From IMG/VR virus record IMGVR_UViG_2740892369_000044: 38,716 nt of DNA, one strand, 5' to 3'. Origin of the DNA: a virus. Lineage: Duplodnaviria > Heunggongvirae > Uroviricota > Caudoviricetes. Positions 3,266 to 15,613 of this stretch are shown here, in pieces. The translations under genes were made by a program, and so were the position numbers. Below the pieces are notes generated by a model. That model worked only from the letters and a program-made list of their open reading frames with translations. It was not told the origin of the DNA and searched no databases. The first letter of the stretch is position 1, and each line of letters begins with the position of its first letter.

Positions 3266-4147
3266 TTACATAGATGTTTCGTTTAATTCTTCCCGACGAA
3301 CGCTGTAAACGTCGGTGGCTTTTGCCAGCAGTTCGTCATCATCTGAAAGTTTTTGTGCAATGTATTTGTAAGCCTTATCCAGTTCGGAGACAGTGCTGTA
3401 ATTCATCGCTGCGCTGGTAAAGGCCATCAGCATTTCTTCTGGATCACGGCTATCCGCTTTACGAGTTTGCTCATCAGGCTTTTTCACTGGTTTAGCGTTG
3501 ATCAGACTGTTCATTCCCGCAGCAGTAGTTGTTTGCGGAGTAATGTCTCGCTCAACGCGCGGTGCCGTTTCCTGTAATTCGTCAGGGGTGTAAACACCGA
3601 GAAGCACATCAGGAGCGTGCAGGCGAGCCCATCGTTTCGTGCAAAGATAGGCAAGCTGCTGGCGCGGATCCTGTTCCCACAATGGAGAGTTACGCACTCC
3701 GGCTTGCGCCATACTGATGGTAAGCTCACGGGGTTCTGCTTCTCCTTTAAGAACTGCTGACACAGTTACCGTCAGATTCGGTGATTTATCTGTTTTGCCG
3801 TTAACATTCGACCAGTCACCGCTCCAGCGATAATTCAGGCGTGTCGCCAGCAGGCTGGAAGAGGATACGACCGCGTTTACCAACTGTGCTTCGTAGCCTA
3901 ACGTTCCGTTTACCACATGCGTTTTCTGCGCCACGGCGAAAGGGTTCATTCCCCACTGTGCCGCCTGCATGGTCACCGCCAGACAATCGGCAGGTTTGCC
4001 TTCAAGATGTTTCGGTACAGTCGCTTTGCTTTGTGACATCAACTCCGCGAAACGCACCAGTTGATTCATGCCCTCCGGGCTGAAGATTGCCGCAGCAGTA
4101 CCTACAGTTGCACCTGGTTGTGATGTGATTGCGATATCATTGCTCAT
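3266..4147 (-). CDS. Red-beta/RecT-superfamily single-strand annealing protein
   Basis: 293 aa; WGMNPF and DPRQQLAYLCTKRWARLHAPDVLLGVYTPDE resemble the lambda Bet segments YGLNPW and HPKRMLRHKAMIQCARLAFGFAGIYDKDE; stop overlaps the upstream exonuclease gene. Confidence 0.75.
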   Translation of the reverse strand: MSNDIAITSQPGATVGTAAAIFSPEGMNQLVRFAELMSQSKATVPKHLEGKPADCLAVTMQAAQWGMNPFAVAQKTHVVNGTLGYEAQLVNAVVSSSSLLATRLNYRWSGDWSNVNGKTDKSPNLTVTVSAVLKGEAEPRELTISMAQAGVRNSPLWEQDPRQQLAYLCTKRWARLHAPDVLLGVYTPDELQETAPRVERDITPQTTTAAGMNSLINAKPVKKPDEQTRKADSRDPEEMLMAFTSAAMNYSTVSELDKAYKYIAQKLSDDDELLAKATDVYSVRREELNETSM

Positions 4148-4965
4148 ACGTACATATCCTGTTTACGTGCCCAGTCAGGGCGTTTAATAATTTCCACTCC
4201 GCCCCACTCATCGTTGATGCGGCATTCGTGATAGGTATTCAGATCCCGGCGGAACAGAGCGTGCCCGGCATCGACATCCTGCGCATCCAGCTCGAACACG
4301 CGTACCGGATACCGACCACAATCAATGCTTTCGCTCACGGCAAGAAAGAAAAAACCATGCGGCTGACCAGTAACCCTCATTGCTCCTTCGCGGTACATTG
4401 CGTCCTGCACGTGGTAGCGGAATTCCTCGATGTGGCGTGCAAAACGGTCCATATCTGCAACCTTTTTCACGTCGACGATCACGTTGTGCTCGTTCAGCCA
4501 TTTGTCTGGACGAATTCGGCACAACTCACCCGTCTCTTCATCGTTCCAGTACATTGACGCTTCGCAGTAACCAGGTGCTTCCAGCATCCAGCGTGCCGCC
4601 GGGTGAGCCATTGCGCTATCACGCATCAGCTCCAGTTTCCGCCACTGCTCGGCATCAAGTACCGTAATCCCCATATCCGCTACATCACGAAGAAATGCTT
4701 CTTCGTCAGCTTTACCTTGTTTCGTCCGACGATCGAATTTCGGTGAAACAATGAAGCGTTTGTCGAACTCTCCAGGCTCCAGAAGCAGACAGTGCAATGC
4801 GGTTCCCATATCCAGTGCAGACTTTTTCTCTTCGTCTTCTGGTGCTGCCTGAACCCATTTAAGAAGCGCCGGATTCTTGGCAACCATGTCCAGTTGCGAC
4901 TTACTCACGCCGTCACCGGCGTGGTAGTCTTCGTTGCTGATGTCGAAATAAATTCCCGGTTTCAT
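4144..4965 (-). CDS. PD-(D/E)XK exonuclease (RecE/exodeoxyribonuclease VIII-like), partner of the annealing protein
   Basis: 273 aa; D...VDVKK nuclease motif; translationally coupled to the downstream annealing protein gene. Confidence 0.7.
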   Translation of the reverse strand: MKPGIYFDISNEDYHAGDGVSKSQLDMVAKNPALLKWVQAAPEDEEKKSALDMGTALHCLLLEPGEFDKRFIVSPKFDRRTKQGKADEEAFLRDVADMGITVLDAEQWRKLELMRDSAMAHPAARWMLEAPGYCEASMYWNDEETGELCRIRPDKWLNEHNVIVDVKKVADMDRFARHIEEFRYHVQDAMYREGAMRVTGQPHGFFFLAVSESIDCGRYPVRVFELDAQDVDAGHALFRRDLNTYHECRINDEWGGVEIIKRPDWARKQDMYV

Positions 4966-5261: not shown

Positions 5262-5416
5262 TATCAGCCCTCCCATATCTCGTTATCGTTGGCTACATCG
5301 CGAGCTTCTTTGCTGACGAAAGCCCACTTAATGCCTTCCTGTAAGGTGCGGAACTTCCAGCTCATGAATCCGCATGCAGTAACGCAGTACCAACCGTTGA
5401 TGATTTTCCACTGCAT
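5252..5416 (-). CDS. Small ORF of about 53 aa (MQWKIINGWYCVTACGFMSWKFRTLQEGIKW...), first gene downstream of the OL-like operators
   Basis: Hand-translated, below the ORF-track size cut-off; in the position of the first PL-transcribed gene; coordinates +/-3. Confidence 0.2.
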
Positions 5417-5435
5417 AACTTGTTACCTCGGTCTG

Positions 5436-5512
5436 TTACCGTTGAGGTAATAATTATGCGTATCTGGTTTGGTGTCAATAGATATGAGTTAAAAAAATTA
5501 CCCGTTAGGTAA
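5436..5512. promoter_or_regulatory. OL-like operator region: two copies of the TTACC-N5-GGTAA inverted repeat (about 5436-5450 and 5498-5512)
   Basis: TTACCGTTGAGGTAA and TTACCCGTTAGGTAA read directly, upstream of the leftward early operon and downstream of the repressor terminator. Confidence 0.6.
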
Positions 5513-5522
5513 TCGAATAGGC

Positions 5523-5548
5523 AATAAAAAAGCCGCCATAAGGCGGCT
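5523..5548 (-). terminator. Rho-independent terminator downstream of the repressor gene
   Basis: Stem AGCCGCC / GGCGGCT with loop ATAA; A-tract on the plus strand gives a U-tract after the stem on the minus strand. Confidence 0.7.
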
Positions 5549-11797: not shown

Positions 11798-12393
11798 TGA
11801 TGCCTGCTGAACCTAAAACCTATAAACGCAAATCAACGCAATTTAAGCCGCTCACAGCAATGCAGGAGGCTTATTGCCAGTCATACATCAAAACGCCTGA
11901 AAACCAGACTCAGGCAGCGATTAACGCAGGATTCTCCCCAAATACAGCGGCAGTTAAAGCCAGTGTCATGATGCGCGATGAACGCATTCAAAAACGGATT
12001 GCCGAGTTGATGGAGGAGCGCAACAAACGAATGCGCGTCAGTGCTGATTACGTTCTCATGCGCCTGGTGGAGATCGACCAGATGGACGTGATCGATATCC
12101 TCAACGACGATGGGAGCCTTAAACCAATCCGTGAGTGGCCGAAAATCTGGCGCACTACGCTTAGCGGCTTTGATCTGTCATCGACCATCATGAACATGAA
12201 CGAGGATTCGATAGAGACAATCCTCAAAAAAATTAAATGGCCTGACAAGGTGAAGAACCTCGAACTGATTGGTAAGCACGTCGACGTCAACGCATTCAAA
12301 GAACGCTTGGATGTTAATGTGAATGTGACAATTGCTGATCGCATAGCAGCAGCCAGGAAGCGACTCAAAGAACGTCAGGATGGCAATCAGTGA
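11797..12393 (+). CDS. Terminase small subunit (P27-type)
   Basis: Internal ATG (MMPAEPK...) of track ORF 11719..12393; LTAMQEAYCQSYIK...NQTQAAINAGFSPNTAAVKAS...ADYVLMRLVEI pattern of phage small terminase subunits; stop overlaps the large subunit start. Confidence 0.75.
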   Translation: MMPAEPKTYKRKSTQFKPLTAMQEAYCQSYIKTPENQTQAAINAGFSPNTAAVKASVMMRDERIQKRIAELMEERNKRMRVSADYVLMRLVEIDQMDVIDILNDDGSLKPIREWPKIWRTTLSGFDLSSTIMNMNEDSIETILKKIKWPDKVKNLELIGKHVDVNAFKERLDVNVNVTIADRIAAARKRLKERQDGNQ

Positions 12394-13865
12394 CAGATAC
12401 AGCGTTATCTCCTGAAGAGCAGTTAATCGAGGATATTGCAGGGTTCACTCACGATCCGCTTGGCTATGCCCTCTATGCGTTCCCGTGGGGGGAAGAAGGG
12501 ACTGAACTGGCACATGCTACCGGCCCACGTCAGTGGCAGGCTGATGCGTTCCGAGAGATACGTGATCACCTGCAGAATCCAGCGACGCGCTATCAGCCGC
12601 TTATGCTGGCACTCGCTTCTGGTCACGGTATTGGTAAATCCGCATTCATCTCAATGCTGATCAACTGGGGCATGTCCACTTGCGAGGATTGTAAGGTCGT
12701 GGTGACCGCCAACACCGACAACCAGCTACGAACGAAGACCTGGCCGGAAATTATCAAGTGGTCGAACCTTGCTATCACGAAAGACTGGTTTACCTGTACC
12801 GCTACCGCGATGTACAGCAATGACCTAGGGCACGACAAGCGGTGGCGGGCTGACGCAATACCCTGGTCTGAGCACAACACCGAGGCATTCGCCGGACTAC
12901 ACAACGAGCGCAAACGCATCATCGTGGTGTTTGATGAAGCGTCGAACATTGCGGATCTGGTGTGGGAAGTTGCCGAGGGTGCGCTTACGGACGAAGACAC
13001 TGAGATTATTTGGGTGGCGTTCGGAAACCCTACACGTAACACCGGGCGTTTTCGCGAATGTTTCCGCAAATATAAACACCGCTGGAAAACTGCGCAGATT
13101 GACAGCCGGACGGTGGAAGGCACTAACAAACAGCAGTTGCAGAAATGGGTTGATGACTACGGGGAAGACAGCGACTTCGTTAAAATCCGTGTGCGCGGCA
13201 TATTCCCGGATGCATCTGAATTGCAGTTTATCCCTACCGGACTTACTGACGAGGCAATGAAACGGGTGGTCACCGCTGCGCAGGTTGCATATGCTCCGGT
13301 GATAATCGGCGTTGACCCGGCATACTCAGGCGTTGATGACGCTGTGATATACCTGCGGCAGGGGCTGCACAGTAAGGTGCTGTGGACTGGCAACAAGACT
13401 ACCGACGATCTGATTATGGCGAAGCGTATCGCTGACTTTGAAGACCAGTATCAGGCTGACGCGGTGTTCATCGACTTCGGTTACGGAACCGGTTTGAAGT
13501 CAATCGGTGACGGCTGGGGTCGTACATGGCAACTTGTTCCGTTCGGTGGCGCGTCTACTGACCCGCAGATGCTCAACAAGCGTGGGGAGATGTTCAACTC
13601 ATGCAAGACATGGCTGAGGCTCGGCGGCATGCTGGATGACCAGGAAACTGCAGACGACCTGTCGGCGGCAGAGTACAAAGTTCGTGTGGACGGTAAAATC
13701 GTTATCGAACCGAAGGAAGATATCAAAGAGCGGCTTGGGCGTTCGCCTGGTAAAGGCGATGCGCTACTGCTGACGTTTGCTTTCCCGGTGTCAAAGCGCC
13801 TGCGACTTCCCGGGCAGCAGAACCAGCAAGGCAAGGCGCTTACCGAGTACGATCCATATGCTTAG
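12390..13865 (+). CDS. Terminase large subunit
   Basis: 491 aa; Walker-A-like ASGHGIGKS, DEASNI (Walker B-like), C-terminal nuclease-like region; position between small terminase and portal. Confidence 0.85.
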   Translation: MTDTALSPEEQLIEDIAGFTHDPLGYALYAFPWGEEGTELAHATGPRQWQADAFREIRDHLQNPATRYQPLMLALASGHGIGKSAFISMLINWGMSTCEDCKVVVTANTDNQLRTKTWPEIIKWSNLAITKDWFTCTATAMYSNDLGHDKRWRADAIPWSEHNTEAFAGLHNERKRIIVVFDEASNIADLVWEVAEGALTDEDTEIIWVAFGNPTRNTGRFRECFRKYKHRWKTAQIDSRTVEGTNKQQLQKWVDDYGEDSDFVKIRVRGIFPDASELQFIPTGLTDEAMKRVVTAAQVAYAPVIIGVDPAYSGVDDAVIYLRQGLHSKVLWTGNKTTDDLIMAKRIADFEDQYQADAVFIDFGYGTGLKSIGDGWGRTWQLVPFGGASTDPQMLNKRGEMFNSCKTWLRLGGMLDDQETADDLSAAEYKVRVDGKIVIEPKEDIKERLGRSPGKGDALLLTFAFPVSKRLRLPGQQNQQGKALTEYDPYA

Positions 13866-14680
13866 TCTTTATTTTTATCCTCGAAACCTGATAATCCAGA
13901 TAGAACACCAAAGTTATTAAAAACGTTTGGCTTACCAGATTTTAATCCGGATAAGTTGTGTTGCTCCAAAAAGTTACTAATTGTTTGGCCGTTGCCAAGT
14001 GCAAGGCTTTTTATTTGAGATTTTTCAGGGTATTTGAGTTTGTATTCGTCGAAATCATTTTGGAGGGTCTTATATGCCTCATTCATTCTTCCAAGAGTTT
14101 CCGATATCTCTTTTAATGAATGATTTAGAGCTGCTAACTGAGCACTGGCGGATCTCAATTCGTCATCTTTAGCTTTCAACTCGGCAGTCAATTCACCCAT
14201 ACTATTCTTTGATCGAATAATCTCTTCTTTCATCTCTTGGATGTCTTTTTCCGCGCCAGTCTTAACTTTGTCGTATGTAACATCTTTTTTAGCCAATAAC
14301 CTCTGCAGTCTTGTTTCACGCTGGATTTTTCTTGCCTTCAGGTGATTTTCGATTGAGTCATTATTATCAAGAGGCTTTGCTTGCCATACGTTAATGATAT
14401 TGTTTACCCATGGTAATAGGCAGCAGATAGCAATTACAGATAGGCATGGATAAAACATAACAGTTTTCCATGTGCTGTTATCTGAGATATATGAAATTTT
14501 ATCTATTATGTTTGATTTGCTAAAAAATAGATAAAGAATTGATTTCCAGTTGAAGGCGCACCAGGACATAACAAAAGCACCAAGCACAGGGTTTTTGGCT
14601 CTATTCACGGCAGTATTGGCAGTAGATAAAAACAGCTCTTTAAACGATTCAAACATGCTAATTACCTTGAAGTTTTTCAT
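13862..14680 (-). CDS. Accessory (moron) protein: two predicted TM helices at the N-terminus followed by a long coiled coil; function unknown
   Basis: 272 aa from internal ATG (MKNFKV...) of track ORF 13862..14752; strongly AT-rich relative to neighbours; antisense to the late operon; stop overlaps the terminase large stop by 3 nt. Confidence 0.6.
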   Translation of the reverse strand: MKNFKVISMFESFKELFLSTANTAVNRAKNPVLGAFVMSWCAFNWKSILYLFFSKSNIIDKISYISDNSTWKTVMFYPCLSVIAICCLLPWVNNIINVWQAKPLDNNDSIENHLKARKIQRETRLQRLLAKKDVTYDKVKTGAEKDIQEMKEEIIRSKNSMGELTAELKAKDDELRSASAQLAALNHSLKEISETLGRMNEAYKTLQNDFDEYKLKYPEKSQIKSLALGNGQTISNFLEQHNLSGLKSGKPNVFNNFGVLSGLSGFEDKNKD

Positions 14681-14684
14681 GATT

Positions 14685-14699
14685 ATACCTTTAAGGTAA
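14685..14699. promoter_or_regulatory. TTACC-TTAAA-GGTAT site (minus-strand sense) overlapping the ribosome-binding site of the moron gene
   Basis: Read directly; the 24 nt ending at the ATG are near-identical to those in front of the VRR-NUC gene at 8601-8624. Confidence 0.45.
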
Positions 14700-14715
14700 T
14701 TTGCGGTCATCAAGC

Positions 14716-14739
14716 AAAAAAATGCCCGGCGAACCGGGC
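14716..14739 (-). terminator. Rho-independent terminator between the tRNA and the moron gene
   Basis: Stem GCCCGG / CCGGGC with loop CGAA; A7 on the plus strand gives a U-tract on the minus strand. Confidence 0.6.
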
Positions 14740-14771
14740 GAACTGGAAGCAATGAGTTATGCCTTCCGTGG

Positions 14772-14787
14772 CTGTACTGGTTTACAG
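14772..14787. promoter_or_regulatory. Weak LexA-box-like element (CTGT-N8-ACAG)
   Basis: GGCTGTACTGGTTTACAGCA has the correct CTG-N10-CAG spacing but a GC-containing centre. Confidence 0.25.
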
Positions 14788-14902
14788 CATGAAGTCATCG
14801 CAATGGCGTCCTGCTGTAAAAAGGGCGGTGATAGTTCTTCAAGGGAAACCATCACCGCCAAGCGCCTGGAACTTCTGGCATCACGGTCCTTAGGCGTGAT
14901 TC

Positions 14903-14979
14903 TGGCGTGGCATGCAGGATTCGAACCTGCGACCAACCGCTTAGAAGGCGGTTGCTCTGTCCAGCTGAGCTAATGCCAC
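14903..14979 (-). tRNA. tRNA-Arg, anticodon UCU, with encoded CCA
   Basis: Hand-folded cloverleaf: acceptor GTGGCAT/ATGCCAC, D-stem GCTC/GAGC, anticodon stem ACCGC/GCGGT with loop CTTCTAA, T-arm GCAGG-TTCGAAT-CCTGC; body resembles argU-type tRNAs but the acceptor stem differs. Confidence 0.85.
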
Positions 14980-15048
14980 AACGCTGAGAGCACTTAGCCT
15001 GTTAAGGCGCCACACTTTGTCGCGGCTCCATAAATGCTCTCAGCGTTG
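14979..15048. repeat. 14-bp inverted repeat (CAACGCTGAGAGCA ... TGCTCTCAGCGTTG) with about 41-bp spacer, abutting the tRNA 5' end
   Basis: Read directly; would form a leader hairpin immediately 5' of the mature tRNA. Confidence 0.5.
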
Positions 15049-15301
15049 TACCCTCGTCTCTTCCGAGGCGTCACACCGAATCGCCGGGATGGTGAATCCC
15101 CGTGCGCGGAATAAAACCGCTCGACTTGCACATTCCGGCTACCTGGTTCGTTTGCCCGAGCAAGGGAGGGTGCCCCTTAAACGTATCCAGACCGCTATCG
15201 GCGCATGTGCCATACGCCGTACTGCTCAAAATAAAAGCTCACTCCACCTGTTCAATTTAACGACAAGCCAGTCAGGTTAGTAACCGGAATGAACTCTTTG
15301 G

Positions 15302-15368
15302 TTACCTGAAAGGTAATAATTTGTGCGTTAAATGTCAACTATCTACGATAAATAAATCATATGTGGTT
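15302..15368 (+). promoter_or_regulatory. Late-promoter-like cassette upstream of the portal operon: TTACCTGAAAGGTAA site (about 15302-15316) and CATATGTGGTT box (about 15358-15368)
   Basis: Both elements read directly; first ATG at 15407. Confidence 0.55.
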
Positions 15369-15406
15369 AAATTGGTAATAATTTAATTGCGTACGGAGTC
15401 ATTGAT

Positions 15407-15613
15407 ATGTGCATGGGTAGTTCACCATCAGTGCCTGCAACACCAGAAGTTCAGGCAGCACCACAGGAGCAGGATGCCGCCGTTATTGATGCCCGCGACG
15501 AAGAAACTCGTCGCCGTCGCGCTGCTGCTGGTCGTAATTCTACGCTGCTTACCGGTTCTCAGGGCGACACATCAACCGCTAATACCAGCGGTAAAACGCT
15601 GCTTGGTCAGTAA
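15407..15613 (+). CDS. Hypothetical small protein, first gene of the head operon
   Basis: 68-aa ORF with GGAG ribosome-binding site; low-complexity sequence. Confidence 0.4.
   Translation: MCMGSSPSVPATPEVQAAPQEQDAAVIDARDEETRRRRAAAGRNSTLLTGSQGDTSTANTSGKTLLGQ

Follow-up and report, generated by a model that had tools for sequence, protein, structure and literature searches.

A conserved, structured RNA is encoded immediately 5′ of a tRNA-Arg gene in virus record IMGVR_UViG_2740892369_000044 (Caudoviricetes), a stretch of 38,716 nucleotides (nt) that is referred to here, at its full length, as the window. The RNA consists of a 177-nt core with seven helices (P1–P7) and a pseudoknot, followed by a long helix (P8) that runs up to the tRNA. 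Helices P1–P7 with the pseudoknot, and a near-invariant 19-nt sequence, are the defining features of the family set up here as covariance model R1, and the core of the window has them all. The explanation placed first, with a confidence that stops a little short of even, is that the segment forms the body and 3′-terminal helix of an uncatalogued structured phage RNA, a discrete early RNA that is released by RNase P and has a host target. The core, P8 and the tRNA comprise the following parts.

15049–15225, minus strand: conserved 177-nt RNA core, helices P1–P7 and pseudoknot (R1, 147.4 bits; covariation)
15199–15219, minus strand: P1, a hairpin of 9 base pairs (bp), CGGCGUAUG-GCA-CAUGCGCCG, with invariant apical UAUGGCACAUG; 98.2% of pair cells paired
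15136–15194, minus strand: P2 (CGG/CCG) and P3 (UCUGG/CCAGG) around a variable P3a domain, from the alignment
15125–15143, minus strand: near-invariant 19-mer GGUAGCCGGAAUGUGCAAG, mostly unpaired in the model and kept in loci chosen by another pattern
15070–15125, minus strand: P4 (GUC/GGC), closing a junction with variable P5, P6 and the pseudoknot, from the alignment
15094–15091 with 15077–15074, minus strand: pseudoknot between CACC of the P6 loop and GGUG, from covariation
15052–15068, minus strand: P7 (CCUCG-GAAGAGA-CGAGG) with a conserved loop; 4 of 5 pairs changed on both sides
14979–15048, minus strand: P8, a long hairpin made of a 14-bp inverted repeat with a 42-nt interior, from the sequence and a repeat scan
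14903–14979, minus strand: tRNA-Arg, anticodon UCU (ARAGORN; Rfam tRNA, 71.7 bits), its base +1 being the last base of P8

The helices were derived by eye from alignments and were then tested as explicit helices against controls in which one partner had been slid along the sequence; an all-against-all covariation scan was set aside, the kinship of the sequences having made its signal too noisy. In alignment A2 (32 non-redundant sequences), 94.0% of the pair cells were paired, against 33–44% in the slid controls, and 16 of the 38 pairs had changed on both sides. The corresponding values for A4, which holds 82 distinct sequences aligned to R1, were 94.5%, 32–43% and 18 of 38, the pseudoknot included. 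Among 500 shuffles none matched the observed values, except for a single one under 'further pair types' in A4, and these counts are not a probability, the sequences being related. Covariation supports P1, P3/P3a, P6, P7 and the pseudoknot. Pair 11–23 of P1 reads GC 47 times and AU 34 times in A4, changes on both sides occur in 8 of 10 pairs of P3/P3a and in 3 of 4 pairs of P6 (GGGA-UUCACCA-UCCC), and pair 149–169 of the pseudoknot is CG in 64 sequences, AU in 14 and unpaired in none, with AACC/GGUU in the lambdoid type. P2 and P4 show no variation in the alignments, and covariation speaks neither for nor against them. The window is part of the R1 seed alignment, so that its score of 147.4 bits (model positions 1–162) is high by construction, while independent members scored 112–168 bits in 90 of 90 matches at 89 loci.

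The second of the two hairpins reported by an earlier, sequence-only reading of this DNA (CCTCG-TCTCTTC-CGAGG, found at 15052–15068) corresponds to P7, and the first to P8. That reading had made its case depend on structure being conserved in relatives. Such conservation is clearly present in A2 and A4, and both hairpins are maintained by compensatory changes in dozens of diverged homologues, which places them beyond chance.

Within the core, 61 columns are invariant across podophage, siphophage and myophage backgrounds, and many of them are unpaired in the model. Some 60 invariant nucleotides, so often unpaired, exceed what folding needs, which argues that the core binds a conserved host component. 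The AUGUGC of the invariant 19-mer (15125–15143) is perfectly complementary to GCACAU in the loop and 3′ strand of P1 (15199–15211). Both strings are invariant while the lower P1 stem covaries, which puts them beyond the reach of covariation; judged by complementarity, they may form an alternative pairing or a tertiary contact. Three further candidates were discarded. A closing helix that would join the 5′ flank to the 3′ side of P7 is perfect in one Klebsiella phage (GCAUC/GAUGC) and inconsistent across members; the P7 loop, which contains AGA and could pair with the tRNA-Arg anticodon, is invariant also in members that have no tRNA-Arg; and GGA motifs of the CsrA type are missing from an existing GGA-free variant of the hairpin.

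The segment is an RNA read on the minus strand. Pairs 12–22 and 35–97 are near-invariant U-G pairs and G-U pairs are frequent, where the opposite strand would have A-C mismatches; the fold z-score is −3.91 for the minus strand and −2.39 for the plus strand; and all 44 neighbouring tRNAs are co-oriented with the core, 27 of them tRNA-Arg immediately 3′ and 17 tRNA-Ile(CAU) immediately 5′. The tRNA-Arg of the window is on the minus strand as well, so the GC-rich segment lies on its 5′ side in the RNA sense. Compensatory changes that preserve G-U pairs are strand-specific and therefore indicate an RNA, not a DNA cruciform or a protein-binding site. The same observation speaks against a DNA element such as an operator, attachment site or origin, an explanation that was weighed together with a protein-coding gene on either strand; the two are hardly credible even when taken together. 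The records of some phages, including mEp460, do have a hypothetical protein annotated over the element, stop-free frames are common in a GC-rich stretch, and an open reading frame (ORF) of 87 amino acids (aa) is indeed present on the plus strand at 15017–15280. The sequence-only reading had judged this ORF to be probably non-coding, rightly so: 170 of the 210 indel runs relative to homologues have lengths that three does not divide, identity at the three codon positions (0.64/0.61/0.71) shows no relaxed third position, runs of 19 nt are invariant over all codon positions, and a Pfam search of the ORF gave no domain match. A coding gene was ruled out on the indel lengths, the absent codon periodicity and the lack of a Pfam domain.

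The distribution of the family was followed by three routes. BLAST with 14980–15330 as the query matched the stretch 15058–15220, or 14980–15220 in some phages, with 70–83% identity in unrelated phages. The core lies just downstream of cI in SfV-like lambdoid phages (mEp460, cdtI and 2H10) and in phages encoding Shiga toxin (Stx) 2a or 2c; between the terminase and portal genes, like in the window, in epsilon15-like phages of Klebsiella, Enterobacter and Salmonella; and downstream of a repressor-like gene in a phage deposited as a Stenotrophomonas phage. It is also present in P1, P7, D6, SJ46, RCS47 and 590 plasmid records, and is found between trnI and ban in P1. Annotation over the BLAST matches was either absent or 'hypothetical protein'. 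A pattern applied to viral contigs added 120 further loci with 89 distinct cores, and a scan for the exact 19-mer (one genome per species) gave 24 matches, which lie in about a dozen genera of Enterobacterales (Escherichia, Klebsiella, Citrobacter, Enterobacter, Kosakonia, Kluyvera, Buttiauxella, Phytobacter, other Enterobacteriaceae, and Erwinia) and in two metagenome bins labelled Oscillospiraceae and Bacillota. One of the two bins has a full-scoring core (L153, 162.3 bits) and the other a marginal match (L141, 9.4 bits, E = 0.4); these are probably mis-binned contigs of enterobacterial phages and not a sign of a wider host range. In complete Escherichia coli genomes the core occurs in 1836 of 5426 (34%), at up to four places per genome, and no feature was annotated over it among the 12 E. 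coli matches listed.

Several of these loci show how the core can be combined or lost. In P1 it belongs to the RNA-gene cluster of the ban operon, together with a dicF-like region, trnA, trnT and trnI, and tRNA-Ile lies 15 nt upstream of it. P1 proper has the core alone, and P8 and the parts downstream of it are thus not obligatory. One locus (L026) carries two tandem cores on the minus strand, about 650 nt apart (4804–4963, 155 bits; 3997–4158, 112 bits). Epsilon15 (L005) retains a degenerate remnant of the core at 2447–2540 (34.7 bits with R1), followed by a terminator and gene p50.

The inverted repeat that forms P8 was the starting point of the sequence-only reading. It is present as described, with CAACGCTGAGAGCA at 14979–14992 and its reverse complement at 15035–15048, except that the spacer is 42 bp and not 41 bp, and it does abut the tRNA, base 14979 being both the final base of the repeat and tRNA base +1. 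It can be extended to 19 nt at 95% complementarity (arms 14978–14996 and 15031–15049), and no other spaced inverted repeat in the entire 38.7-kb window is as long. The window has a C where most members show an A-G mismatch, which makes its repeat perfect. In other phages the stem is kept with other sequences (CAACGAUGAGAGC/GCUCUCAGCGUUG, CAACAGGUAAGAGC/GCUCUUUCCGUUG, CAAUCAAAGAGCG/CGCUCUUUUUGAUUG and CAACAGGAAAAGGCG/CGCCGUUUCCGUUG). Across 14 distinct arm pairs, 6 of the 14 base pairs have changed on both sides; the arms were pre-selected for complementarity, which biases the percentage paired. The interior of P8 is hypervariable, ranging from 11 to more than 170 nt of unrelated sequence, and identical interiors are shuffled among different cores. 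Some interiors hold tRNA fragments, with T arms AAAGG-UUCGAUU-CCUUU and CUGG-UUCAAUU-CCAG (L102, L013/L037), and P8 may, from such sequences, be a hotspot for recombination with tRNA genes. An alternative module takes the place of P8 downstream of P7 (…CAGCCAUUCACGCUAAGCAUC…GGGUGCUUAGCGGGACUGGAAGAGUUACCACUUGGAGACGGUCC…) and is conserved among L008, L035, L036, L062, L072, L095, L133 and L135.

P8 ends in GUUG|UGG, and the position that follows behaves as a slot. Of 117 distinct downstream sequences, 22 have a genuine tRNA-Arg beginning at this point, and 63 have in its stead a cloverleaf-like, multi-branched domain of 75–135 nt that is closed by GUUGUGG(U)/(A)CCACAAC; tRNA and cloverleaf-like domain together account for 85 of the 94 downstream sequences with the P8-closing motif. 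The first hairpin of the domain is at the place of a D arm, while the last abuts the 3′ strand at the place of a T arm, and some of the domains have canonical T-arm (GCAUG-UUCGAUU-CAUGC) and D-arm sequences with a large insertion at the position of an anticodon arm. Examples that correspond to the tRNA of the window (14903–14979) are found at 2800–2985 in mEp460 (L001) and at L006, L007, L015, L099, L142 and L148. ARAGORN and Rfam call none of these domains a tRNA or transfer-messenger RNA, and their likeness to tRNA is one of topology only. The suggestion that the segment itself is the remnant of a second tRNA-like element fails: the tRNA-like modules of relatives sit downstream of the repeat, in the slot, and the tRNA model RF00005 found nothing in 14980–15300 even at E <= 10.

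Two other suggestions of the sequence-only reading, a small RNA upstream of the tRNA and a processed tRNA leader, were closer. The first pointed in the right direction, towards a structured RNA on the strand of the tRNA. The second is correct in that this RNA has a terminal helix ending at the RNase P site, and falls short in that the RNA is more than a leader: no tRNA lies within −600/+900 nt at 88 of 132 homologous loci, and P1-like phages have theirs on the 5′ side. A passive element of this general kind, whether a tRNA 5′ leader, a processing site for RNase III or RNase E, or a stability element with no function of its own, is rated improbable. Its appeal comes from the adjoining tRNA and from the 13–19-bp duplex of P8, a plausible substrate of RNase III, and the corresponding intergenic region of the epsilon15 record does carry an annotated 'RNaseIII mRNA processing' site. 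That site, as placed by the depositors (2533–2632 in the locus, 2720–2819 in the record), touches only the 5′ edge of the core remnant. Two thirds of the homologues have no tRNA nearby, P1 retains the core and not P8, and the invariant columns and pseudoknot kept over podo-, sipho- and myophages go far beyond the needs of a cleavage site or hairpin.

The unit extends beyond the segment first described (14979–15300), which covers only part of it; the full unit runs from about 15338 to 14815. On the minus strand its order is putative promoter (about 15338–15310), leader, core (15225–15049), P8 (15048–14979), tRNA (14979–14903), small hairpin and terminator (14859–14815). The fold, the sense strand, the family and this modular layout are the observed part of the account. 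The parts at either end, and the first gene beyond the unit, are as follows.

15310–15338, minus strand: putative sigma-70 early promoter, read from the sequence, with −35 TTGACA (15338–15333), a 17-nt spacer and −10 TACCTT (15315–15310)
15301–15317, no strand assigned: operator-like palindrome ATTACC-N5-GGTAA(C) over the −10, read from the sequence
15226–15303, minus strand: 5′ leader, conserved among epsilon15-like loci only
14880–14900, minus strand: small hairpin AUCACG-CCUAAGGAC-CGUGAU, beginning 2 nt past the CCA end of the tRNA
14815–14859, minus strand: conserved intrinsic terminator GGCGGUGAUGG...CUAUCACCGCC-CUUUUUACA with a 14-bp stem, the end of the RNA unit
14716–14739, minus strand: second intrinsic terminator, GCCCGGUUCGCCGGGC and U7 (stem 14739–14724), followed by a ribosome-binding site and the start of the 275-aa ORF
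13862–14689, minus strand: accessory ORF, 275 aa from its ATG, with a hydrophobic N-terminal part and a long coiled coil (context only)

The window represents an epsilon15-like prophage (phiV10/TL-2011b type), and the DNA around the element shares 98–99% identity with TL-2011b and phiV10 and 100% with chromosomal prophages of E. coli. It is flanked by the gene of the large terminase (12390–13865, plus strand) on one side and by a gp3-like small gene and the portal gene (15407 onward, plus strand) on the other. The segment is GC-rich, as had been noted, with a GC content of 0.52–0.575 over 14700–15299, compared with 0.34–0.41 in the left flank (14400–14799) and 0.38 at 15200–15399. Pfam gave only sub-threshold coiled-coil matches for the accessory ORF, and related phages have different ORFs in its place.

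Downstream of the slot, a CACG-N7-10-CGUG hairpin equivalent to that of the window is present in 51 of 117 distinct contexts. The terminator module (UUUGGCGGUrnCAG...CUGnyACCGCC-CUUUUUACA) is common to podophage and siphophage contexts, among them SfV-like lambdoid phages, Klebsiella phages and others (L001, L006, L007, L009, L090, L137, L142 and L149), and 93 of 116 distinct contexts have one predicted terminator or more ahead of the first long ORF. The second terminator of the window is found again in related epsilon15-like loci, some 12 nt ahead of ORFs that vary. Directly after it stands a further promoter-like sequence, ATGACC-17-TATAAT (10 of 12 positions; 14682–14739, minus strand), which holds an ATTACC...GGTA palindrome like that of the main operator and has a −10 that ends 1 nt ahead of the start codon (ATG) of the 275-aa ORF. 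This ORF would be expressed by read-through or from that second promoter, possibly under repressor control.

At the head of the unit, transcription is inferred to start at about 15303. TTGACA and the block of −10 and operator are kept in other epsilon15-like loci with a varying spacer, and the epsilon15 record has 'repressor, lysogeny' annotated at the equivalent site, next to an IHF site, as predictions of its depositors. Siphophages have, in this sequence, a CI-like repressor gene (helix-turn-helix with an S24 peptidase, or helix-turn-helix alone), its terminator, a sigma-70 promoter overlapped by an operator, and then the core, which lies 0–70 nt downstream of the PL-like promoter and begins 0–50 nt past the predicted start. 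In an Stx2c phage this promoter is TTGACA-16-CATAAT (11 of 12 positions), with the palindromic operator GAGATACATAATGTATCT across the −10. On this reading of promoters and operators, the location of the core in siphophages is the position of a PL leader.

Such a position suggests the main rival, somewhat less probable than the explanation placed first: the core could be a cis-acting leader for processive antitermination in the manner of HK022 put or Bacillus EAR, the nascent RNA binding its own polymerase and carrying it past one or more terminators into early-left or accessory genes. A leader of this kind would, with the same modest likelihood, supply the function that is absent in SfV-like phages without N. 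The core directly follows an operator-controlled PL-like promoter behind the cI terminator, terminators stand before the first long ORF in most contexts, one terminator belongs to the conserved module itself, and two of them precede an ORF with a ribosome-binding site in the window. In mEp460 Q is annotated and N is not, and no N-like ORF was found between the PL-like promoter and the first gene downstream of the element. The put RNA of HK022 has about 70 nt in two stem-loops; putL, near PL, needs no phage protein, and put stays bound to RNA polymerase without tethering, so that cleavage by RNase P would be no obstacle (PMC9378689). Against antitermination, HK022 has both putL and putR, whereas the window and mEp460 have one core each, with no second, putR-like copy at E <= 10 (R1) and none in the PR operon; epsilon15 retains the terminator and the downstream ORF with the core reduced to a remnant; P1 has no predicted terminator from the core to ban; and P8, the tRNA slot and tandem copies would be superfluous for this role. 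Read-through of the DicF terminator of the Qin prophage is not known to need a device of this kind.

The core shares with putL a location shortly after PL, the early promoter, in a temperate enterobacterial phage lacking N, with terminators and early genes following. It differs from put in having 177 nt with seven helices and a pseudoknot, in occurring once per genome where put is found at PL and PR, and in being coupled to a tRNA slot and a terminator of its own; there is no detectable similarity of sequence or structure, and R1 had no match in the complete HK022 genome. Membership of put was rejected on size, number of helices, single copy and this missing match. The antitermination and discrete-RNA explanations are not exclusive, since put remains on the polymerase untethered (PMC9378689).

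A sensor resembling a riboswitch would place the terminators in yet another light. The core would then be an aptamer for a metabolite or second messenger and would tune early read-through as an input of the lysis–lysogeny decision or of host state. A junction of several helices, with a pseudoknot and a large number of unpaired but invariant nucleotides, in a 5′ leader ahead of terminators, fits such a sensor, as do pairings that exclude each other (CAAC/GUUG at the base of P8 versus GUUGUGG/CCACAAC, and AUGUGC versus GCACAU). What makes the proposal quite unlikely is that the terminator lies 150–500 nt past the core, with P8, the slot and the hairpin in between, leaving no adjacent expression platform; that the downstream contexts differ (tRNA, ban, varied ORFs); and that no Rfam riboswitch class matches and the neighbouring genes suggest no ligand.

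The explanation placed first, a discrete RNA, takes up the same parts in a different way. The unit would be transcribed when repression is released, as a leftward 'RNA operon' with the structured RNA as its first product. RNase P would cut at tRNA base +1 (14979) and free the upstream RNA, with P8 as a protective 3′-terminal helix; in phages without the tRNA, the cloverleaf-like domain in the slot would serve that purpose, and in P1 the tRNA-Ile would set the 5′ side. The freed core would bind a conserved host component early in lytic development, the transcribing RNA polymerase being the first candidate. This explanation is ranked first because the unit has its own terminator and flanking processing signals, because the core is set among RNA genes in P1, and because one locus has cores in tandem and the core was lost in epsilon15 without loss of the ORF.

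Several points weigh against it. Genes always follow on the same strand, and the terminator that so often stands between would fit a role in cis equally well. The −10 of the window is weak (3 of 6 positions) and the promoter is absent from the consensus-scan list, and P1 proper lacks P8, the slot domain and the terminator altogether. There is also an ascertainment effect, the viral loci having been chosen by a P1/P2 pattern and the genome loci by the 19-mer, so that only the other set and the loci obtained by BLAST give independent evidence on the invariance of each collecting motif; both motifs are conserved there. Every step of the biogenesis is inferred, and the final functional step is a generic one.

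Comparison with catalogued RNAs gave no known home for the core. The Rfam scan proposed by the sequence-only reading recovered the tRNA (14903–14979) and no family in the segment 14980–15300. In the window, Rfam 15 found only the tRNA at gathering level and only noise at E <= 10 in 14600–15500, and on seven related loci it placed no family over the element and only unrelated RNAs elsewhere. Among RNAs elsewhere, an int-alpA RNA (44 bits) lies at 1450–1514 in Enterobacter phage Tyrion (L007), about 1 kb further along the leftward unit, and C4 antisense and isrK-like RNAs lie at 5351–5539 in mEp460, in the rightward (PR) operon before the antirepressor gene. No description of this RNA was found in the searchable literature, the coverage of which is incomplete.

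The nut site of phage lambda resembles the core in genomic position, nutL being in the leader of the PL transcript, and differs in being short, dependent on N and present at both PL and PR, with no N-like ORF here. The 3′ arm of P8 (GUGCUCUC/UU...) resembles boxA (UGCUCUUUAACAA in its rrn form); these boxA-like letters are paired inside P8 and are altered in several variants. A nut site of lambda type was rejected because N is not annotated in mEp460, no N-like ORF is present and the boxA-like string is paired and unconserved.

GOLLD and ROOL are large, ornate RNAs of phages and prophages that occur near tRNA genes, at times with tRNAs in a variable linker (PMC12286853). They are like the core in being intricate phage RNAs associated with tRNA, and unlike it in having 500–800 nt or more, in occurring mostly outside Enterobacteriaceae and in forming multimeric cages; the core is smaller, is tied to a repressor-controlled early promoter and has no Rfam match.

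Phage operon leaders are known to give rise to small RNAs. The C4 RNAs of P1 and P7 and the CI RNA of P4 are cut from such leaders by RNase P, a parallel to the RNA proposed here, but they are antisense immunity RNAs of 77–90 nt with known targets, and Rfam places C4 elsewhere in mEp460, not at the core. DicF and lambda PreS (for PreS, bioRxiv 10.1101/2024.10.31.621285) are host-directed and lie, like the core, within repressor-controlled early operons of lambdoid prophages; they are simple small RNAs of the Hfq type that have no pseudoknotted core. The terminator hairpin of the unit (UUUGGCGGUrnCAG...CCGCCC) resembles the 3′ hairpin of DicF, closely so in its 5′ half, a likeness limited to the terminator, and membership of DicF was rejected (RF00039 gave 15.2 bits, E = 1.3, in L142 against a threshold of 48 bits, while neither the window nor mEp460 was matched up to E = 10). 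The EAR element of Bacillus has more than 100 nt, is pseudoknotted and promotes processive antitermination from within an operon. Its place inside an operon parallels that of the core in the ban operon of P1, while it comes from another phylum, is not a phage element and has no Rfam similarity to the core. By position and logic putL and nutL come nearest, as ornate phage RNAs that adjoin or hold tRNAs GOLLD and ROOL do, and as host-directed RNAs of an early operon DicF and PreS do. The core is not a member of any of the systems compared, each defining feature that could be tested having failed.

Structured RNAs of phage early operons are a known kind; new, as far as sequence can tell, would be this family, with its tRNA slot, at the head of early transcription. 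That it represents a new class of self-acting phage RNA, either an RNA-only device for terminator resistance unrelated to put or an ornate RNA organised about a site that takes a tRNA or its mimic, is less likely than not. If it acts on the polymerase, it would explain early transcription in SfV-like, Stx, P1-like and epsilon15-like phages without N; if the slot is the key, the RNA would deliver or shield the tRNA or capture a core host factor. The pseudoknot and some 60 invariant nucleotides make the RNA a good target for structure determination and for a search for its partner, and a slot able to take either a rare-codon tRNA or a domain shaped like one recalls the unexplained link of GOLLD and ROOL with tRNA, here in a genetically tractable host. 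Standing where lambda has nutL and HK022 has putL, the element bears on early-left control in lambdoid phages without N, on prophage induction and perhaps on the output of toxin phages. It is carried by P1, by Shiga-toxin-converting phages and by 34% of complete E. coli genomes, and is unannotated or labelled as a hypothetical protein in the records inspected; if the proposed role is true, a widespread regulator would have escaped annotation both in P1, a model phage, and in roughly one in three E. coli genomes.

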